DNA of 64,000 nucleotides from a virus, in the IMG/VR virus record IMGVR_UViG_3300012954_000009, positions 1-64,000 of that record; one strand, 5' to 3'. Below are positions 7,542 to 23,911 of the stretch, in pieces (position 1 is the first letter of the stretch; every line of letters begins with the position of its first letter). The notes below the pieces were generated by a model that was not told the DNA's origin, searched no databases, and saw only the letters and a program-made list of their open reading frames with translations. A program made the position numbers and the translations under genes.

Positions 7542-8267
7542 ATGCCACAAGTTAAAATAAATATACAAGAAAAGAAAGATAGACTATCTCAAAAGCTAGA
7601 AGGATGGAAAGTTGTACAAGATTTTGTACAATCATCTGCTTTTGATTCTGTTATGCTTAACTTAATATCACAAGTTGAGAATGACAATAGATTTACACCT
7701 AAGTTTAAAGATATATTCAATGCATTTATACATTGTCCATATGATAAGCTTAAAGTTATTTTTGTAGGACAAGATCCTTATCCTCAGCTAGATGTTGCAG
7801 ATGGTATATCTTTTAGTTGTTCTAAAACAATGAAAGAGCAGCCATCATTAAGATATATTTTTGATGAGATTGAACGTACTGTTTATTCACCAAAAATAGA
7901 TAAAGATGAGTCAACTATACTTAGAGAAGGATATAATCCAGATCTAAAAAGATGGTCAAAACAAGGAGTTCTTATGCTTAATACAGCACTTACTGTAGCA
8001 ATAGGTAAGATTGGTTCTCATTATGATATATGGAAACCTTTTGCTTCATACTTATTTACTGAGTTAAATAAAAGAGATGACTTAGTATTTGTATGCTTAG
8101 GTAAAAAAGCAGAACAATGGGAAAGTTATATGAATAATAATCATGTTATAAAAGTAACACACCCAGCATCTGCTGCATATAAAGGTGGTAAGTGGAACTC
8201 ACAGGACCTATTTAATCAAGTCAATAATTACCTAGAATCTATAGACAAATCTTTGATAGTCTGGTAG
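7542..8267 (+). CDS. ung: Uracil-DNA glycosylase family 1
   Basis: GQDPY catalytic motif, QGVLMLN, HPAS. Confidence 0.95.
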   Translation: MPQVKINIQEKKDRLSQKLEGWKVVQDFVQSSAFDSVMLNLISQVENDNRFTPKFKDIFNAFIHCPYDKLKVIFVGQDPYPQLDVADGISFSCSKTMKEQPSLRYIFDEIERTVYSPKIDKDESTILREGYNPDLKRWSKQGVLMLNTALTVAIGKIGSHYDIWKPFASYLFTELNKRDDLVFVCLGKKAEQWESYMNNNHVIKVTHPASAAYKGGKWNSQDLFNQVNNYLESIDKSLIVW

Positions 8268-12901: not shown

Positions 12902-13313
12902 AAGAAAATGGTTCATACCTTTTAATGTGCCTAGCAGTAAGAACGGTAGACGGTGGACTGGTAAGTATTTTATATCTAGTAAGACAGTAATGACTTATAG
13001 AAAGAATACAAAGTCTATTTATGCTAAGTATGCAAAGGCATTTAGAAAAGAGTTTGATAAATATGAAACACCGGTCAAGATTGGCTTTACTTTTATTAGA
13101 GGTACAAGACATAAGTTTGACTACATAAATCCAGCACAGACTGTACAAGATGATATGGTTAAGAATGGTTGGATAGAAGATGATAACGCTGAGTTTATAA
13201 TACCTGTTTTTGAGCGTTATACATATGATAAAAATAAACCGGGTGTAATTATTGAAATTATTAAAGATGGAAATAAAAGACATGAAGATCCTAGCAATAG
13301 CAAATCAGTTTAG
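12894..13313 (+). CDS. RusA-like Holliday junction resolvase
   Basis: VPSSKN...FDYINPAQTVQDDMVKNGWIEDDN. Confidence 0.85.
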   Translation: MAKRKWFIPFNVPSSKNGRRWTGKYFISSKTVMTYRKNTKSIYAKYAKAFRKEFDKYETPVKIGFTFIRGTRHKFDYINPAQTVQDDMVKNGWIEDDNAEFIIPVFERYTYDKNKPGVIIEIIKDGNKRHEDPSNSKSV

Positions 13314-13638
13314 AGATGCAGGTGCTACATGGTTAAGAGTAGAATTTGATGGTAGTGGAGATGATGGTGATATAGGTGATATTATTATGACTGCGGATAA
13401 AGAAGATTGGAATGCAGAGATACCTGGTAATCCTTTAGATTCACAGGCTGATAATATTCTCAGAGACTTTCTTTACTATAAAGTTAGTGATGGTGTTGGG
13501 ATGCACGGTGATTGGATAAATAATCAAGGTGGGTATGGTACTCTTTGGTGGGACTTATCAAGTAATAAATTCAGTATTGAATATTATCAAAGAACTACTG
13601 AAGACATTGAGATACCTGAGAAACCAATGTTTGCCTAA
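13267..13638 (+). CDS. Acidic protein, DUF6878-like
   Basis: EFDGSGDDGDI...DWINNQGGYG motifs; ATG 13267. Confidence 0.7.
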   Translation: MEIKDMKILAIANQFRDAGATWLRVEFDGSGDDGDIGDIIMTADKEDWNAEIPGNPLDSQADNILRDFLYYKVSDGVGMHGDWINNQGGYGTLWWDLSSNKFSIEYYQRTTEDIEIPEKPMFA

Positions 13639-13985
13639 TGGCTCATCCAAACATTCATTCAAAAAGTTCTGTAAGAAAATGGGGTGGTGTTTTAGAAGAT
13701 TATCAAAAGATACATGAGTGGTTTGATGAAACTAAGCAGTGGCTTGGTCACTCAAATCATAGATTGTGGAGGCATCACTCAGAAGGAATATTTGAATGTG
13801 AAAGAATATTCGGTAAGAGTTTTACCAATTCAGATGGTAGAACAGTATACACAAGATATGTTGGTGAGCAACATGTAAAAGAAGATTGTAATAACTATAT
13901 ACCCTCAGCAAAGGAATGGATATTACATATAACAAATAAAAGTAGACCATTATGGATGCAAAAATCAGCAAAGATTCAAGATTAA
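13638..13985 (+). CDS. His-rich protein, DUF6915-like
   Basis: MAHPNIHSKSSVRKWGG..IHEWFD..HRLWRHHSEGIF..EQHVKED..IPS. Confidence 0.8.
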   Translation: MAHPNIHSKSSVRKWGGVLEDYQKIHEWFDETKQWLGHSNHRLWRHHSEGIFECERIFGKSFTNSDGRTVYTRYVGEQHVKEDCNNYIPSAKEWILHITNKSRPLWMQKSAKIQD

Positions 13986-14359
13986 AATCAAGATTAAATA
14001 ATAAAGATTTCCATGCTTTGGCAACTATGATCAGATCACAGGAAGATGATTTAACAGTAGCTGTATCTAATATTAAAAATCTTAAATACAGTTTCTTGGA
14101 TATAAAGCTATTGTGTAAAACAATAGCAGGTACTAAAAGATTAGTTATGAGAAATGCCTTAGCAGAGGCAGGATACCCTGACTTTTTTCAAGATGAAGAT
14201 TTAAAATTTAAGAACCTTCATACAGAAATAAAAATGGAAGGAACTAAAGAGCAACAGTCAATATTTGAATTTTTAGTAAATAAGAATATTCAAATTAGCT
14301 ATAGCCAAATAGAAAGCTTTTCTTTTATAGATAATATAAAAACTAAGATAAGATGGTAG
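13952..14359 (+). CDS. Hypothetical helical protein sharing a motif with 16784..17821 and 17818..18981
   Basis: LNNKDFHALATMIRSQEDDLTVAVSNI. Confidence 0.7.
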   Translation: MDAKISKDSRLKSRLNNKDFHALATMIRSQEDDLTVAVSNIKNLKYSFLDIKLLCKTIAGTKRLVMRNALAEAGYPDFFQDEDLKFKNLHTEIKMEGTKEQQSIFEFLVNKNIQISYSQIESFSFIDNIKTKIRW

Positions 14360-15513
14360 ATGTACAAAACCAGGTAGCTAAAGCTGCCAAAACTTTAATA
14401 TTTGAGGAGCCCTTTTACGGGCTCTTTTTAGTAGGTCTTAATAAGACATATAGAAAAGATATACCTACTGCAGGTGTATCTAAGAATGGTATTGGAGTAC
14501 AGCTAAGTGTGAACCCTGAATACTTTACTGGACTTACAGTAGAGCAAAGGATAGGTTTATTGAAACATGAGTTGTTACACATATCATTTGGACATTTAAT
14601 AAGCAGGGATTTGTATTCAGATAAAAAGCTATTTAATGTAGCGGCAGATCTAGAAATAAATCAATACATAGATGCTAATGCATTACCTCCTGGAGGTTTA
14701 GTATTAGATATGTTTCCTGAATTAAATCTTCCAAAGAAAGTAGGTACTGATAAATACTATGAGCTATTAGAACAAGCTCAGCAGGATGGTACTTGCCCTT
14801 CACTTGATGATCTTATGGATAGGATGGATGGTTCTTCTCAATATGATCATATGACCTGGGATGAGTTCAATGAATTACCAGAAGCTGAAAAGAAACTGAT
14901 ACAAAAGCAAATTGAGCATCAGCTAAAAGAAACAGCAGAGCAGACTGAGAAGAGGCGTGGTAATATACCCGGTGAGCTTGCTGATTTAATTAGAAAGCTA
15001 AGGTATGTTGAACCTCCTAAGTTTGATTGGAAAGGATATCTTAAAAGATTTATAGGTAATTCTACTGTTGTATATACTAAGAAGCTTAGGCGTAAGTATA
15101 ACAAGAGATACGTAGAGAACCCTGGTCTTAAGATAAAGTTCAAAAATAATATCTGTGTTGGTGTAGATACATCAGGTTCAGTATCTAATGATGAACTAAG
15201 AGAATTTATGGGTGAATTAGTACATATGCATAAGACTGGTCATAAGATCACTGTTGTGCAGTGTGATACACAAATAAATTCTGTAGAAGAATTCAATCCA
15301 AAAAAAGATTGGGAAATAAAAGGTAGAGGTGGTACATCATTTCAACCAGTTATAGATCATTATAATCAGAATGGGCGTTATACAGCTCTTATATACTTAA
15401 CAGATGGTGAAGCTTATGCTCCAGAGAACTGTCCACATAATACTTTGTGGGTACACAGTAGTCGCTGTAACATAAATGAAGATTTACCAGGTAAAAAAAT
15501 ACAATTAAATTAA
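14353..15513 (+). CDS. Metallopeptidase (HExxH) plus vWA domain protein (DUF2201-like)
   Basis: HELLH, NVAADLEIN; MIDAS DTSGS, GGTSF, LTDG. Confidence 0.92.
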   Translation: MVDVQNQVAKAAKTLIFEEPFYGLFLVGLNKTYRKDIPTAGVSKNGIGVQLSVNPEYFTGLTVEQRIGLLKHELLHISFGHLISRDLYSDKKLFNVAADLEINQYIDANALPPGGLVLDMFPELNLPKKVGTDKYYELLEQAQQDGTCPSLDDLMDRMDGSSQYDHMTWDEFNELPEAEKKLIQKQIEHQLKETAEQTEKRRGNIPGELADLIRKLRYVEPPKFDWKGYLKRFIGNSTVVYTKKLRRKYNKRYVENPGLKIKFKNNICVGVDTSGSVSNDELREFMGELVHMHKTGHKITVVQCDTQINSVEEFNPKKDWEIKGRGGTSFQPVIDHYNQNGRYTALIYLTDGEAYAPENCPHNTLWVHSSRCNINEDLPGKKIQLN

Positions 15514-15518
15514 ATAAA

Positions 15519-16784
15519 ATGGCAGAAGTACAATTAAACATTGATGAGCTAAAAGGATTTGTAAACCACATAATCCAGAATAATAGATTCCTTCAAAAGC
15601 AAGGAAAGAACCCAGTATCTACAGAAGTTGTAGGTGAATCAGGGATTGGTAAAACATCTACTATTATTGAGCTAGCTAAAGATAACAATCTAAATTTTGT
15701 TAAGCTTAATCTAGCACAGATAGAGGAGTTAGGTGACCTAGTTGGTTTTCCTGTACGTCAGTTTCAGATGTATAAAGAAAAAAAGGTACAACCTAAACAA
15801 ATAGATGACTTATCATATACAGCAGCCCAAAGAGCTGCAGCTGCTGCACAAGTTGGTAATGCAGCTGTTACTAAAAAAGTTGGCCAATGGGTTGATGAGC
15901 TTGCAGTGGAAGAATATATGAGACAAGGTTGGAAGGTTACCGGTAAGAATAGAATGTCTTACTGTGCACCAGAGTGGATTGCAGATAAAAAAGAAGGAGG
16001 TATATTGCTTCTTGATGACTGGAACCGTGCAGATGTAAGATTTATACAGGCTGTGATGGAATTAGTTGACAGACAAACTTATATCTCTTGGTCCCTTCCA
16101 CAGGATTGGCATATTATATTAACGGCTAACCCGGATAATGGGGACTATATGGTAAACTCTGTTGATGCTGCACAAAAGACCAGATATATTACAGCAAACC
16201 TAAAGTTTGATGTAGAAGTATGGGCTCGTTGGGCAGAAGAGGCAGGAATAGATACAAGATGTATTAACTTTATGCTATTACATCCTGAACTTGTAACTCA
16301 AGAAACAAATGCTAGATCAATTACTACATTCTTCAATGCAATATCTAGCTTTGAAGACTTTGAAAAAAGTTTATCTATGATACAACTTATTGGTGAAGGA
16401 TCAGTAGGTGATGAGTTTGCATCTATGTTTACCACATTTATTAATAATAAACTAGATAAGTTAGTTACACCTAAAGATCTATTGACTCATGATAATGAGC
16501 AGTATATCCTTGGTGAGTTGACCTCATGTGTTGGAAAAGGAGATGCATATCGTGCAGACATTGCTTCAACACTTGCAACAAGACTTGCTAACTTCTCTGT
16601 TGTGTATTCTAAGGAGAATACAATTTCTCAGAAAATAACTGAGAGACTAGAGACACTGTGTACTAAAGATTATTTTACTAATGATCTTAAGTATTTAGTT
16701 GTCAGAACTATATTCAATGGTAACAAGAGTAAGTTTAATAAACTTATGATGAAGCCGGAGATTATTAAAATGACTATGAAATAA
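15519..16784 (+). CDS. MoxR-like AAA+ ATPase
   Basis: GESGIGKT, GDLVGFP, LLLDDWNRA, TANP; adjacent to the vWA gene. Confidence 0.9.
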   Translation: MAEVQLNIDELKGFVNHIIQNNRFLQKQGKNPVSTEVVGESGIGKTSTIIELAKDNNLNFVKLNLAQIEELGDLVGFPVRQFQMYKEKKVQPKQIDDLSYTAAQRAAAAAQVGNAAVTKKVGQWVDELAVEEYMRQGWKVTGKNRMSYCAPEWIADKKEGGILLLDDWNRADVRFIQAVMELVDRQTYISWSLPQDWHIILTANPDNGDYMVNSVDAAQKTRYITANLKFDVEVWARWAEEAGIDTRCINFMLLHPELVTQETNARSITTFFNAISSFEDFEKSLSMIQLIGEGSVGDEFASMFTTFINNKLDKLVTPKDLLTHDNEQYILGELTSCVGKGDAYRADIASTLATRLANFSVVYSKENTISQKITERLETLCTKDYFTNDLKYLVVRTIFNGNKSKFNKLMMKPEIIKMTMK

Positions 16785-17821
16785 TGAGTAAAAAAGCGGT
16801 ACATCAAAAATTTAATAATGATGCACTGAAACACTTTGGTTTGATTGATGAGCCCTTCTATGGGCTCGTCACATCACACCAGGTTGATGAGGTGCTTATA
16901 ACACAAGATGAAAGTACATTTGAGAAGATTAGAAATATTATTACTAAATCTTCATATAACTTTACTAATACACCAGCTCCTGGAGTATTAAAAGGAATGA
17001 AGCGTGCATTTGTTTTACCAAGATGTGGGGTATCATTAGATAGAGTTAAGGCTGCATGTAAAGAGCATTCAATAACAGTCACTAATGATTATACAAAAGC
17101 AGACTTTATAATATCACATAATGATATATATGATAGATTTGAGAATGGTGAAAGAATCAAGACAACATCTATGATGTTTAGGCTTTGGAACTATGAAGCA
17201 TATGATCAGGTTGGTCTTAGTTATGTTGATAGTTTTGTGCATCCTGTTATATGGGATGAGAAGCTTATTGATAAAGGTATACAGAGTTATAATCTTGATG
17301 ATGGAGATTCTTTATATGATGAATGGGCTATAAGCGGTCTAGCTATGAACTTAGCTTATCTAGTAGACACTGGTGAGCTTACTGTTATAGATGTTAATGA
17401 TGTACTAAGTGCATCTGCTAATATTACAGAGTTAACACCTGAGCTTATAAATGATATGAGTAAATGGTTAGACTCCTATGATGATGATAACATTGCTGTA
17501 GCAGGAAAGATACTTCCTACAATTGATTATACAAAGAAGAAACATCTTGTGTGGGAGTTAGCTCAAAGTCTATATCATAAGAGTCATAAGTTTAGTAGAG
17601 ACAAAGATGTCAATTATTGGATAGAACAATCCCGTATAGAAGAGTTCTACCATATGACTGCTCAAGATATGATACTTCATCTTGAAAAAGTGGAAGAGCT
17701 AAGTAAAGAGAGCTTTAGATATTTAGAACCTATTGTCAGAAAAGAAATTAGAATTGATAATAGAGACTTATATGTATTTAAAGTAAGTGTTAAAAAAGAA
17801 TATAAAAAATATTTACAATGA
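16784..17821 (+). CDS. Hypothetical protein with BRCT-like segment
   Basis: AFVLPRCGVSLDRVKAACKEHSITVTNDYTKADFII. Confidence 0.6.
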   Translation: MSKKAVHQKFNNDALKHFGLIDEPFYGLVTSHQVDEVLITQDESTFEKIRNIITKSSYNFTNTPAPGVLKGMKRAFVLPRCGVSLDRVKAACKEHSITVTNDYTKADFIISHNDIYDRFENGERIKTTSMMFRLWNYEAYDQVGLSYVDSFVHPVIWDEKLIDKGIQSYNLDDGDSLYDEWAISGLAMNLAYLVDTGELTVIDVNDVLSASANITELTPELINDMSKWLDSYDDDNIAVAGKILPTIDYTKKKHLVWELAQSLYHKSHKFSRDKDVNYWIEQSRIEEFYHMTAQDMILHLEKVEELSKESFRYLEPIVRKEIRIDNRDLYVFKVSVKKEYKKYLQ

Positions 17822-18981
17822 AAATAAAATATATAAAAATAGAATTTGCTGATCATAATGGTTTAGTTAAAACTGATATGATAATGGCAGCAGAATATGG
17901 TTTATTTATTGGCAAGTCAAAAGGTTATTATAGTCATGGTAGTAGTTATGTTAAAGATCTTATAGATCAAAGCATACTTAATAGACCAACTATGATGCAG
18001 ATAAAAGACACAACTATATATAGATTTCCAAAACTTAGTTTACCAAGGCAGAAGGTTGATCATTTAAAAGAAACAGCTAATGTATCTGTAACTAGAAATA
18101 AAGATAGTGCAGACTATCATATTATTTCTGAGAAGCTGTTAGATAGTTTCTTTGAATCATCATGGAATAATTTTAGTACTAGTGATGAAGCAAAAGATTT
18201 CTTACAGTCATGTCAGAATTGTTTTACTAATGATGCATATATAATGCTTCGTGATATGATTGAGGATGATATGTTATATCACTATGAGATAAATGCAGAT
18301 TGGAGAAATCAGAATCCTCATAAAGATAAACTATCAGAGGTTTATCATAAATTAAGTAGAAACAAGGAAGGTTATGATATATATGTTCCTAGTAAAAATG
18401 TTAATGATTATACGTCTATTACAAGTAATCCAAAACTAGTTCTTGATCAACATATCAAAGAACTATGTGATGAAGGGCTACATATTCTTACAGAAGAAGA
18501 GACTCTTAACATTGAAAAGATACTAGGTACTCATGATGTTGAGAATCTAACATTAGCTTTAGAGATGATGTCTAATTGTAATCTTGATAAGTCATTTGAT
18601 TATGTTAGTTATCTATATTATTTTAACTTTGAGAATCTTAAGATGGCTAGTAATTGGAATAATATTAATGCAAAAACTCTAAGAAAAGCATTAGATAAGT
18701 TCACACCTTACTCTAATAACAGTGCTATATATTATGAGGCCTATCTCAAGAAGCTTATAGAAGCTGATAAACTTACAGAGTGGGCTTTTAAAGCCACAGC
18801 TAAAAGGCTATTTGATGGAGGTATGAAAAGCTTTGGTCTTAATAGAGATGTATTTAGTATTTCACTAGATGATATCAAATTGAATCCAAAGTATGCTGAT
18901 GTCATGAAGAAAGCTGAGTCAGCTGAGGAGATTATTAAAGAACTAACAGGAGATCCTGCCTTTGATGATTTACCTTTCTAA
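17818..18981 (+). CDS. Hypothetical protein with BRCT-like segment and SSB-type C-terminal tip
   Basis: IYRFPKLSLPRQKV...VSVTRNKDSADYHII; ends FDDLPF. Confidence 0.6.
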   Translation: MKIKYIKIEFADHNGLVKTDMIMAAEYGLFIGKSKGYYSHGSSYVKDLIDQSILNRPTMMQIKDTTIYRFPKLSLPRQKVDHLKETANVSVTRNKDSADYHIISEKLLDSFFESSWNNFSTSDEAKDFLQSCQNCFTNDAYIMLRDMIEDDMLYHYEINADWRNQNPHKDKLSEVYHKLSRNKEGYDIYVPSKNVNDYTSITSNPKLVLDQHIKELCDEGLHILTEEETLNIEKILGTHDVENLTLALEMMSNCNLDKSFDYVSYLYYFNFENLKMASNWNNINAKTLRKALDKFTPYSNNSAIYYEAYLKKLIEADKLTEWAFKATAKRLFDGGMKSFGLNRDVFSISLDDIKLNPKYADVMKKAESAEEIIKELTGDPAFDDLPF

Positions 18982-19814
18982 TGATCAAGGTTCAAAGAAC
19001 AAGAACATTAGATACCAAAGACAATAACAATAGTGCCAACTGCATTGCACCAAATCTAGTCTACGGATGTTTTGGTAGATGCGTTGACACTTATTGTTAT
19101 ATGTCCAGGTACAATGGTCATAGAGTTTTTGTAAATGAAAACGTTGATGAGATATTTCAGTCTGTTGTTGAATGGGAAAAAAGTTTTACTAAAACACCAG
19201 ATCAACAAGACCCTATATATACTATGGTAGATATAGCATGCAATACTGATTTAGTTCTGATGCAAAAACATTTACCAGAGAAACTTCATGATTATTTAAA
19301 GAGATATGATGAGCATCCTAGACTCAATACTACTATGGCTACTAAGTATCCTAGGTTATTGAAGCTGGATGTAAATCATTTTAAAAAATCACCAAGAGTT
19401 CGTGTTAGTCTTATGCCTCAAGTTTATTCTAATATATTAGAACCTAAGATGCAAAAGATTGAATCAAGAATTCATGATGTGAATAGATTGAAAGGTTTAG
19501 GATGGCAAGTTCATTTAAATTATAGTCCTTTAATATTTCATGAAGGATGGCCAGAACTATATGATGAGCTATTTACTATGGTAAAAAGCATAGCAGGTGA
19601 AAATAAATGTGAAGTTATAGCATTAACTAATCACCATAGGCAAATGATGAAGGCATCTCCAGAAGCAAGAGAGTTAATGAAACACTCTTATGAGATTAAA
19701 AATGGTACAGGTATTATGAGGTATCCTCTTAAGTATAAATCCATATGGATTAATAACTGGAAGAAGATATATTCAAAACACTTTAATACAGAAACAATTA
19801 GATATATATTTTAA
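18981..19814 (+). CDS. Spore photoproduct lyase-like radical SAM enzyme
   Basis: GCFGRCVDTYCYM, DIACNTD, ATKY, RVRVSLMP, VHLNYSP, MRY. Confidence 0.85.
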   Translation: MIKVQRTRTLDTKDNNNSANCIAPNLVYGCFGRCVDTYCYMSRYNGHRVFVNENVDEIFQSVVEWEKSFTKTPDQQDPIYTMVDIACNTDLVLMQKHLPEKLHDYLKRYDEHPRLNTTMATKYPRLLKLDVNHFKKSPRVRVSLMPQVYSNILEPKMQKIESRIHDVNRLKGLGWQVHLNYSPLIFHEGWPELYDELFTMVKSIAGENKCEVIALTNHHRQMMKASPEARELMKHSYEIKNGTGIMRYPLKYKSIWINNWKKIYSKHFNTETIRYIF

Positions 19815-21889: not shown

Positions 21890-23881
21890 ATGAATCATTG
21901 GGTAATGGACTATGAAACATTATCTAATTGTTTTGTTGCAGTGTTTGAGCATTATAAAACATCTGAAAGGAAAGTTTTTGTGATACATGACAATCAAAAT
22001 GATTTAGTAAGTTTTGTAGACTTTTTAAGACAAAATACAGAAAATAAAGAGTGGCATATATCATACAATGGTTTAGCATTTGATGCACAAGTAACCCATT
22101 TTGTAATTGAAAATCACAGTGAGTGGTTAGATCTTCACGGATCAGATGTGGCTAGCATAATATATAACTATGCTGCTGAATGCATCATAAAAAGTAATAA
22201 GAAAGAGTTCCAGCAGTATCCTTTATGGAGAATGTGTATTGGACAAATTGATTTATTTAAGTTACATCATTGGGATAACCCGGCTAAGAGATCTAGTTTA
22301 AAGTGGATTCAGTATAGTATGGATTGGGATAACATGTTAGATATGCCCATACACCATGAAACTATTATTAAAACACAAGAAGAAATAGATCTTATAATTG
22401 AGTATTGTATAAATGATGTAGAATCTACTAAAGAGATTTATAAAAAATCACAGTCCCAGATTGCTTTGAGGAAAGAGTTGACAAAGAAATATAATATAAA
22501 TCTTTTCTCAGCTTCAGAGCCTAGGATTAGTAAAGAGCTTTTTGCATATTACTTATCTAAGATGCTTAATATATCTAAACCAGAGATCAAAAGGATGCGT
22601 ACTTATAGAGATACTATAAAGGTTAAAGATATTCTATTACCGTATATAAGTTTTAAGTCATTAGAGTTTAAAAACTTATTGGACCGGTTTAAGATGCTTG
22701 AATTAAATCCTGATAGTTTAAAAGGTAGCTTTAAGTATTCAGTAAACTATAAAAATGTAAAGACTGACTTTGGTCTAGGTGGTGTACACGGTGCAATATC
22801 TAGTGGAGTATACAAATCTGATGATGATTATGTTATTATGTCTTCAGATGTTACTAGTTTTTATCCAAATCTTGTTATTAAGAACAAGTGGGCTCCTGGA
22901 CATTTCCCAGAAGAAGAGTTTTGTAATCAGTATGAGTGGTTCTTTGAGGAGAGGAAGAAGATTCCAAAGAGTAATCCTATGAACTATGTGTATAAGATTA
23001 TACTTAATTCAACATTTGGTCTTAGTAATGATATCAATAGTTTCTTTTATGATCCTGAACTGTGTATGCGTATTACAGTTAATGGACAGTTGACACTTAT
23101 GATGTTGTATGAAATGATTATGGAAGAAATACCAGATGCTGTATCTCTTATGCAGAACACTGATGGTATTGAGATAAGAATACCTAGGGATCAAACTGAT
23201 AAGTATATGGAAATATGTTCAAGATGGGAAGATATTACAAATCTAAATCTAGAACATGATACATATCAAAGGATCATAGTTGGAGATGTCAATAATTATA
23301 TTGGTGTTAATGACTTTAAGCAGATTGATCTCAAGAGCTGGAGAGATATTAAACATGATAATCCTCATTATTTATTTAAAGTGAATAATGATAAATTTTA
23401 TTATGCTCCTACCAAGATGAAGGGTAGATTTGATTTCCACAATTTAGCTCTGCACAAGAATAAGTCAAAGCTTATAATTAAGAAAGCTATATTTTATTAT
23501 TTTGTACATGATATATTACCAGAGGATTATCTTGCTAAGAATAGAAACATCCTTGATTATTGTATAGGTGGTAAGTCTAAAGGCAACTGGAAACAGTTTG
23601 CAAGAGGTCTCAACAAGGGTGAGTTCTTTCAAGAAGAGTTACAAAAGATAAATAGATACTATATTAGTAAAAGCGGTGTTAAGATTGTCAAGATTAATAG
23701 TCAAGATGATAGAGAAATACAACTTGAATCAGGTCGTTGGTTACAAAGTGTCTTTAATAAGATGGAATTGAAACCAAGATGGGATGATTATGATATAGAT
23801 AATGCTTATTATATGAAAGCAATTGAGTCTGAAATTGACAACATTCTTGAAGTCAGCATCAATCAATTAAAATTATTCTAA
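21890..23881 (+). CDS. DNA polymerase family B (crAss-like) with 3'-5' exonuclease
   Basis: ExoI DYET, ExoII YNGLAFD, ExoIII YCINDV; pol motifs DVTSFYP, KIILNSTFG, NTDG. Confidence 0.95.
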   Translation: MNHWVMDYETLSNCFVAVFEHYKTSERKVFVIHDNQNDLVSFVDFLRQNTENKEWHISYNGLAFDAQVTHFVIENHSEWLDLHGSDVASIIYNYAAECIIKSNKKEFQQYPLWRMCIGQIDLFKLHHWDNPAKRSSLKWIQYSMDWDNMLDMPIHHETIIKTQEEIDLIIEYCINDVESTKEIYKKSQSQIALRKELTKKYNINLFSASEPRISKELFAYYLSKMLNISKPEIKRMRTYRDTIKVKDILLPYISFKSLEFKNLLDRFKMLELNPDSLKGSFKYSVNYKNVKTDFGLGGVHGAISSGVYKSDDDYVIMSSDVTSFYPNLVIKNKWAPGHFPEEEFCNQYEWFFEERKKIPKSNPMNYVYKIILNSTFGLSNDINSFFYDPELCMRITVNGQLTLMMLYEMIMEEIPDAVSLMQNTDGIEIRIPRDQTDKYMEICSRWEDITNLNLEHDTYQRIIVGDVNNYIGVNDFKQIDLKSWRDIKHDNPHYLFKVNNDKFYYAPTKMKGRFDFHNLALHKNKSKLIIKKAIFYYFVHDILPEDYLAKNRNILDYCIGGKSKGNWKQFARGLNKGEFFQEELQKINRYYISKSGVKIVKINSQDDREIQLESGRWLQSVFNKMELKPRWDDYDIDNAYYMKAIESEIDNILEVSINQLKLF

Positions 23882-23911
23882 TAGGGTCAAAAAATAGGCC
23901 CTATTAGTTTT
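23878..23911 (+). terminator. Rho-independent terminator
   Basis: CTAATAGGGTC-aaaaaata-GGCCCTATTAG then TTTT. Confidence 0.75.

Follow-up and report, generated by a model that had tools for sequence, protein, structure and literature searches.

We analyzed a cluster of seven plus-strand open reading frames (ORFs) at positions 13252-18981 of a 64,000-nucleotide window (the whole stretch of DNA under study, positions 1 to 64,000 of the IMG/VR record IMGVR_UViG_3300012954_000009) from the 102-kb genome of an uncultured marine phage. The stops and starts of these ORFs overlap or abut, and their products are here called P1 to P7. At the center of the cluster is a pair of enzymes, namely P4 (14353..15513), a zincin-like metallopeptidase fused to a vWA domain and resembling N4 gp25, and P5 (15519..16784), an AAA+ ATPase of the MoxR class (AAA_5 type) resembling N4 gp24. 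The pair is bracketed by three partner proteins: the 135-aa P3 (13952..14359), all-helical in its AlphaFold2 (AF2) model and recognized also by its motif and synteny; the 345-aa P6 (16784..17821), in which a BRCT-like region is followed by a helical domain; and the 387-aa P7 (17818..18981), whose AF2 model has an N-terminal beta unit, a BRCT-like domain, an ARM/HEAT-like helical domain and a flexible acidic tail. The stop of P3 overlaps the start of P4, and P4 ends 5 nt upstream of P5. The two remaining ORFs lie ahead of P3 and encode a 128-aa DUF6878-family protein (P1, 13252..13638, Pfam E-value 1e-10) and a 115-aa histidine-rich DUF6915-family protein (P2, 13638..13985, Pfam E-value 1e-39, also matching phrog_8143). 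The core pair is of the already known N4 gp24/gp25 type, and the new part is the partner family of P3, P6 and P7.

The enzyme pair and the conserved gene block

Both halves of P4 exceed their Pfam gathering scores, with the peptidase domain preceding the vWA domain. The DUF2201_N domain (PF13203) covers residues 6-242 with 67 bits against a cut-off of 23.2, and the vWA-like DUF2201 domain (PF09967) covers residues 268-383 with 66 bits against a cut-off of 26.4; the protein also matches phrog_1314 (E-value 1e-66). The zinc-binding motif HELLHISFGH (H72-H81, 14566..14595, plus strand) is found as HE[LIV]LHxxFGH in all 77 aligned P4 sequences, with H72, E73, H76 and H81 invariant. The MIDAS (metal ion-dependent adhesion site) of the vWA domain starts with a DxSxS element (D272-T-S-G-S276, 15166..15180, plus strand) and is completed downstream by GRGGT and LTDGE. 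These elements appear as DTSGS in 74, as GRGGT[SD] in 68 and as LTDGE in 72 of the 77 sequences, and the columns are invariant in the P4 alignment. Homologs of P4 with the ATPase as neighbor were found in 468 phage records, including N4-like phages, Rak2-like jumbo phages, PBS1/AR9 and AD45-P4. Such gp25-like DUF2201_N/DUF2201 proteins and phrog_1314 itself are widely labeled 'HNH endonuclease' (for example NC_019516 gp056, NC_031039 gp029 and NC_029101 YH30_73), a label that is contradicted by their zincin and vWA domain content, and our finding corrects this widespread misannotation. Literature searches on DUF2201, PF09967, PF13203, COG3864, and crAss-like phages together with MoxR returned no functional work.

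The ATPase P5 matches phrog_1297 ('ATPase', E-value 5e-34) and reaches the Pfam families AAA and AAA_5 at sub-threshold level only (16 bits for AAA_5, under the 22-bit cut-off). It is similar to the COG0714 'MoxR-like' ATPase of phage AD45-P4 (E-value 3e-11), to the 'MoxR-like ATPase' of S-TIM5 (E-value 5e-7), and to a protein of a Bacteroidota locus, L114 (E-value 6e-67), which itself passes AAA_5 (38.9 bits) and scores 21.3 bits with AAA_3 (cut-off 27). The best sequence match in the PDB is to the AAA modules of midasin (E-value 2.4e-4). The Walker A motif GESGIGKT (residues 39-46, 15633..15656, plus strand) is present in 84 of 85 related loci, and the Walker B motif with the adjoining signature, ILLLDDWNRA (residues 162-171, 16002..16031, plus strand), in 85 of 85, always with DD; a large insertion lies between the two. 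At the aligned site AD45-P4 has LDELNRA whereas P5 has LLLDDWNRA, the usual catalytic glutamate being replaced by aspartate. With the HExxH motif, the full MIDAS, and Walker A and B kept across about 80 loci, both enzymes look active as judged from their sequences. The pair of a MoxR ATPase and an HExxH/vWA protein, which an earlier note on this DNA had recognized, is thus real and its catalytic motifs are intact; such pairs in phages have already been described (PMC7824862, PMC2784036).

The gene order RusA-[P1-P2]-P3-P4-P5-P6-P7-nuclease holds across the 85 loci, and P4-P5-P6-P7 are contiguous in every locus that is long enough to show it. A small motif-bearing ORF (95-157 aa) overlaps or abuts the start of P4 in 83 of 83 loci; 39 of these ORFs were not assigned to P3 by phmmer, yet they begin with the same motif pattern. 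Out of about 83 related loci, P1 was found in 35, with a median identity of 32%, and P2 in 37. P1 is a facultative neighbor, and P2 is both facultative and independently mobile. The P2 gene shares 70-75% DNA identity over 110-190 bp with the Bacillus anthracis/cereus phages Tsamsa, Izhevsk and Thrax, an unusual DNA-level likeness between marine crAss-like and Firmicute phages, and no MoxR or vWA gene lies near DUF6915 in the Bacillus phages. A gene of the spore photoproduct lyase (SPL) family (18981-19814, PF20903 E-value 3e-17) stands between P7 and the nuclease. In relatives L002-L005 it adjoins the gene for a 663-aa polymerase-like protein, and most loci lack it at the slot before the nuclease, so this SPL-like gene acts as a movable gene. 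Because P1 and P2 are facultative, the SPL-like gene is mobile, and P4-P7 are unbroken, we define the conserved unit as P3-P7. The earlier note had described a seven-gene module enclosed by a resolvase and an exonuclease: its ORFs, its domain calls and the upstream RusA stand, the unit itself contracts to five genes, and the SPL-like gene intervenes before the nuclease. The tight linkage that it saw between the three uncharacterized ORFs and the AAA/vWA-metallopeptidase pair is borne out by the P3-P7 order kept in the relatives, a check that it had proposed.

The genes of this unit differ strongly in their rates of change. P5 is the most conserved gene of the block, with a median identity to the window of 83% and a ratio of nonsynonymous to synonymous substitution rates (dN/dS, calculated for close pairs) of 0.06, followed by P4 (73% and 0.10), P6 (47% and 0.23), P7 (33% and 0.29) and P3 (28% and 0.30). 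The corresponding values for the primase, RusA and nuclease genes are 59-73% and 0.07-0.09, and the dN/dS of the partners is three to five times that of the core and the neighbors (0.23-0.30 vs 0.06-0.10). We read the combination of high dN/dS and low identity as the behavior of specificity elements. The partners diverge in step with the core (Spearman 0.55-0.75), only a few pairs being discordant, and the description of them as 'interchangeable' adaptors is not supported. They change fast, mostly by vertical descent and now and then by replacement, and are not freely shuffled.

Homology and predicted structure of P3, P6 and P7

The three partners share a hairpin motif of a helix, an acidic turn and a second helix. 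It spans residues 15-41 of P3 (13994..14074, plus strand; helices at 17-29 and 35-44 in the AF2 model), residues 217-244 of P6 (17432..17515, plus strand), where the copy is the most diverged and stands in register with the other two, and residues 224-251 of P7 (18487..18570, plus strand), where it makes up the opening pair of helices in the helical domain of the AF2 model. These starts (L15 of P3, L217 of P6 and L224 of P7) are exactly those at which the motif had been aligned by eye. BLASTP with single sequences connected only P6 and P7 among the partners (E-value 0.029), in an alignment that begins exactly at the motif. With family profiles, each of the three pairs has its top local alignment on the motif, and the register is the same in all. 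Using wide profiles in hhalign, P3 and P7 match with a probability of 89.7% and an E-value of 1.8e-6 (82.8-89.7% and 9e-6 to 1.8e-6 across profile sets), and residues 70-344 of P6 align end to end with residues 62-363 of P7 over 257 columns (probability 76.7%, E-value 2.1e-5; a separate hhalign comparison gave 3.5e-4). The P3-P6 match is weak, with an E-value of 0.006 and a probability of 6% but collinear over 104 columns (E-value 0.006-0.04 overall). The profile comparison suggested in the earlier note therefore shows the shared motif to be true homology, carried by the P3-P7 and P6-P7 scores, with the weak P3-P6 match in the same register. Origin by chance or from a DNA-level repeat was rejected, the similarity being at the level of protein profiles and kept across hypervariable families.

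No match to P3, P6 or P7 was found among the families of Pfam, PHROG and NCBIfam, tblastn of P6 and P7 against GenBank phages detected no relatives, and a search of the ESM Atlas with P3 and P7 gave no usable match. A hidden Markov model (HMM) of the motif, built from P3 and P7, identified no further motif-bearing ORF in the 102-kb genome. From profiles and predicted models we conclude that the three proteins form one undescribed family, in which P6 and P7 are paralogs and P3 is a free-standing copy of the helical domain.

Predicted structures were obtained for P3 (predicted local distance difference test score, pLDDT, 85.5; predicted TM-score, pTM, 0.81; eight helices) and P7 (pLDDT 82.8). 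In both models the motif adopts the helix, acidic turn, helix form and opens a helical domain, and both models map to the same residues of PDB entries 7wns_A and 4i1a_B in the register of the motif. A search of predicted viral structures (BFVD) with P7 gave four confident relatives, of which a single phage contributes two, and the top BFVD matches of the P3 model are the same P7-type proteins (probability 0.72 and 0.44, TMq 0.47 and 0.43). Foldseek found no whole-chain match to P7 in the PDB. It is moderately supported by these models that the motif is the first hairpin of an ARM/HEAT-like helical domain, and not an isolated docking peptide. The fold assignments of P6 and P7, in which a BRCT-like domain would precede the helical domain, are likewise moderately supported. 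Residues 58-221 of P7 (17989..18480, plus strand), which include an insertion, match many BRCT folds in structure searches, and the Pfam BRCT and PTCB-BRCT models have no match above the gathering score in P6, P7 or 49 members of the P7 family.

The P3 family includes at least 259 clusters at 50% identity, and the 150 listed are all stand-alone proteins of 63-163 aa; P7 has 73 database homologs. Across 44 diverse P3 sequences, D33 and K56 are invariant and N43 and R63 nearly so. The ORFs in the P3 position of loci L006-L085 fall into two length classes, a long form of 114-157 aa and a short form of 95-103 aa that is devoid of the C-terminal helices and the terminal tryptophan. The short form occurs in loci that have neither P1 nor P2 and in which the gap between RusA and P4 is about 230-290 nt.

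The C-terminal tip of Escherichia coli single-stranded DNA-binding protein (SSB) reads D-D-D-I-P-F. P7 terminates in the SSB-tip-like sequence DDLPF (18964..18978, plus strand), part of the end ...DPAFDDLPF, in which an acidic run and [IL]-P-F lie on a flexible tail (pLDDT below 50 at residues 382-387). An end of the form [DE][DE]x?hPF is unique to P7 among the ORF ends of the 102-kb genome.

In the Bacteroidota, DUF2201_N is sparse, being present in 8 of the 301 genomes sampled. Locus L114 contains the closest cellular copy of the pair, in which the P4-like protein matches with an E-value of 1e-55 alongside the P5-like ATPase described above. This pair is surrounded by LRR/TPR proteins in a non-replication context, and it is directly preceded by two paralogs, a 1069-aa TPR-LRR-BRCT-hairpin-LRR protein and a 531-aa hairpin-LRR protein. 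The larger one passes the Pfam BRCT model (22.9 bits vs a cut-off of 21.3), and the top match of the P7 profile in both is the hairpin (E-values 0.0024 and 0.0027). A match of the P3 HMM in the same locus lies inside a regulator of the AraC family and was judged spurious.

Among the neighbors of the pair in S-TIM5, AR9, AD45-P4 and YH30, no convincing motif was detected. The sole signal was a 5-bit match of the P7 profile to AR9 gp030 (7579-8259 of locus L087), just downstream of the vWA-peptidase gene; it covers the hairpin and has an E-value of 0.03 among 71 ORFs. This match is too weak to count, and distant phages may have cryptic partners.

Replication setting and proposed role

The block is preceded by genes for a DnaB-like helicase, an AAA_24 ATPase, a Toprim primase and RusA (according to Pfam and PHROG scans), and followed by the SPL-like gene, a PD-(D/E)XK nuclease gene and the gene for the 663-aa protein, a putative DNA polymerase by eye that has no Pfam match. 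The only strong plus-strand terminator at 10-24 kb follows this 663-aa gene, which places P1-P7 within one long replication operon. The terminator-like hairpin (23878-23907) has an 11-bp stem and a T-rich tail, overlaps the stop codon of the 663-aa gene (23879-23881), and probably marks the end of the operon. A scan for sigma-70 promoters remained at chance level (76 found vs 80.8 expected). The pair is located in replication or early regions also in Litunavirus YH30, beside helicase and DNA polymerase genes, and in AR9, behind an annotated early promoter and beside a topoisomerase gene. Small cysteine-rich, zinc-ribbon-like ORFs are present between RusA and P4 in some relatives (L004 3599-3820, 73 aa; L002 5301-5501, 66 aa). 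On the minus strand, the window contains a run of giant ORFs at 35319-63910 (1881, 4943, 1101, 918 and 676 aa), and two more lie beyond them (L088 1792-12953; 1563 and 2156 aa); PHROG matches of those scanned are nearly nil.

The portal, major capsid protein and large terminase of the phage match phrog_6547, phrog_11589 and phrog_6681. A tblastn search with the portal returned 130 records at 22-34% identity, most of which are crAss-like, Bacteroides, Flavobacterium and Cellulophaga phages, and the closest portal relative belongs to a cyanobacterial phage of Leptolyngbya. The crAss-like affiliation assumed at the outset holds as a distant relation on the basis of this portal homology. With 466 relatives of P5 in IMG/VR and 479 matches of P6 in marine metagenome proteins, the lineage is abundant. 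A search of genome contigs with the P4 profile found only phage contigs of the same lineage, in metagenome-assembled genomes (MAGs) of four unrelated orders, and these carry neither a prophage nor a host signal. These include the near-complete contigs L093-L097 (about 115-120 kb) in MAGs labeled Rickettsiales, Pseudomonadales, Campylobacteraceae and Flavobacteriales. Their placement is probably misbinning, and the labels are unfit for host assignment.

Our preferred reading, held tentatively and with slightly less than even confidence, is that P3-P7 work as one functional unit, in which the shared domain would be a handle to P4/P5 and the variable parts would choose the targets. P5 would serve as the MoxR-class motor, and P4, with an intact zincin peptidase fused to its vWA domain, as the co-factor of P5. 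The conserved hairpin and its domain may join each partner to this machine, most plausibly through contact of the conserved acidic/Asn turn, at D32-D33 of P3 and E242-N243 of P7, with the MIDAS metal in the vWA domain of P4. Target choice would then fall to the fast-evolving remainder, namely what is left of P3, the BRCT-like domains and also, in this clade, the DDLPF tail of P7. Since the partners carry BRCT-like domains and an SSB-like tail and are encoded in a replication context, the targets are probably proteins of the replication or repair apparatus. A captured protein would be remodeled by P5 at the expense of ATP and might in addition be cleaved by the zincin of P4.

Several observations weigh against this reading. 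From before 10 kb to 23.9 kb, the genes form a single co-directional syntenic operon that has no internal terminator, so adjacency alone is weak evidence. The N4-like phages, S-TIM5, AR9 and AD45-P4 have the pair and no detectable neighbors of the P3/P6/P7 type, so its basic function can do without the partners. The bacterial support comes from the single locus L114, and a second bacterial copy of the ATPase (G070) has no P4-like or motif-bearing neighbor. The motif of P6 is weak when taken alone and is not retrieved by the HMM built from P3 and P7, so the place of P6 in the family rests on its whole-protein paralogy with P7. An end of the [DE][DE]x?hPF form is found in only 25 of 131 members of the P7 family, which makes DDLPF clade-specific. 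Finally, the DD of the P5 Walker B motif might mean slow or altered ATP hydrolysis.

A rival explanation is that the partners are a phage-specific family of paralogous BRCT/helical scaffolds that act at the replication fork or in recombination uncoupled from the pair, their position beside it being due to the general synteny of the operon and the motif being no more than a family signature. BRCT-like folds and an SSB-like tail would by themselves suit replication or repair scaffolding, gene order is kept by the whole replication operon, and both the 468 other phage records sampled and the G070 copy show the pair or its ATPase free of such neighbors. We nevertheless consider it unlikely, because members of the family flank the pair at either end, P3 overlaps P4, stop with start, in essentially all loci, and P3-P7 stay together while P1, P2 and the SPL-like gene move. 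It is further disfavored by the BRCT-plus-hairpin proteins directly upstream of the closest bacterial pair, where the surroundings are LRR/TPR genes and not replication genes. A role of the pair as a chaperone/protease in virion assembly, by which structural or ejected proteins are folded and processed, has been proposed in print for group 2.2 jumbo phages and has a precedent in ATV tail assembly (PMC7824862; p618 in PMC4660213). In the present phage its substrates could be the giant minus-strand proteins of 900-4943 aa, and the partners would be assembly scaffolds or clients. The zincin site is intact, and very large proteins outside known families are encoded beside the structural genes. The location of the block between primase/RusA and nuclease/putative polymerase genes, the replication or early setting of the pair in YH30 and AR9, and the BRCT-like domains and SSB-like tail, which point to partners from DNA transactions, make this role improbable.

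The partners could also be regulated clients or inhibitors, with P3 capping the MIDAS or the peptidase of P4 up to its own removal or cleavage, or decoys that by themselves titrate host SSB-binding proteins. P3 is small, apparently translationally coupled to P4, and has the invariant or nearly invariant polar residues D33, K56, N43 and R63, and pairs of a zincin with a small, rapidly diverging protein for peptide processing are known beside MoxR-vWA systems (PMC7159879). P6 and P7, however, are large and made of several domains, which typical protease pro-peptides are not, no conserved motif resembling a cleavage site came to light (no search aimed at one was made), and we give this option a distinctly small chance, although the data do not separate client from adaptor. 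A bolder version of the preferred reading, in which the phage has taken over a bacterial MoxR-vWA conflict-system scaffold, strikes us as improbable as a whole. Here fast-evolving helical surfaces and a mimic of the SSB tail would stand in place of the LRR sensors, giving a programmable machine for capture, remodeling and cleavage that pulls proteins of the host SSB interactome or of host defense off the fork, with the hairpin as a universal plug into the vWA MIDAS. If true, it would reveal the role of the long-unexplained N4 gp24/gp25 pair.

Comparison with known systems

The combination of an AAA_5/MoxR motor with a vWA protein is shared with CbbQ-CbbO, NorQ-NorD, RavA-ViaA and midasin/Rea1. 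In CbbQO, the vWA MIDAS binds a carboxylate of the client, which is remodeled by the MoxR partner (PMC4660213), and MIDAS-carboxylate binding extends to other AAA_5/MoxR-vWA remodelers, including midasin/Rea1 (PMC4660213; PMC9976466). P4 likewise has a complete MIDAS. In contrast to P4, the vWA proteins of these remodelers have no peptidase, and their known clients are rubisco, nitric oxide reductase, respiratory complexes and pre-60S factors.

The 'ternary' MoxR-vWA systems, whose third components are alpha-helical and diverge rapidly (Kaur et al. 2020, PMC7159879), resemble the present module in the MoxR-vWA core with diverging helical extras, and the partners in L114 bear TPR and LRR repeats. 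In these VMAP/iSTAND systems the effector is C-terminal, whereas here the zincin is N-terminal to the vWA domain and the genes belong to a phage replication operon. No VMAP-C or iSTAND domain turned up in Pfam scans of P3, P6 and P7, among whose profiles the VMAP-C model was not included. We do not file the module under the VMAP/iSTAND ternary family.

The BRCT-like region and the tail of P7 have counterparts outside these systems. P7 residues 58-221 resemble BRCT scaffold proteins in fold, and a bacterial partner in L114 has a Pfam BRCT domain; P6 and P7 differ in remaining below the Pfam BRCT threshold. The DDLPF end is similar to the SSB tip in sequence and is restricted to a clade.

Among phages, an identical architecture was reported by Iyer et al. 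(2021) for the MoxR/metallopeptidase-vWA pair of group 2.2 jumbo phages, for which a function in virion assembly or processing was proposed (PMC7824862), and Rak2-like jumbo phages are among our P4 matches. No partner family was described there, whereas here the pair is in a replication operon and flanked by BRCT/helical partners. The other counterpart is the adjacent pair of the AAA ATPase gp24 and the vWFA protein gp25 of N4 (Schitoviridae), conserved in N4-like phages with its function listed as unknown (PMC2784036). The same two families are involved, and P4 is annotated as 'N4 gp25-like' in relatives. The ATPase gene precedes the vWA gene in N4-like phages, AR9 and S-TIM5, whereas the order is reversed here and in AD45-P4; P5 differs from gp24 in a longer insertion and a C-terminal extension, and no partners of the P3/P6/P7 type were detected beside the pair in those phages. 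Thus the pair is distributed over hundreds of phages (N4-like, jumbo, PBS1-like and the abundant marine crAss-like phages) without a known function or client. The partner family, which is always beside the pair in this lineage, carries recognizable interaction domains (BRCT-like, ARM/HEAT-like and an SSB-like tail) and is met again next to the nearest bacterial copy, provides concrete baits and point mutants for finding the substrate of the pair.

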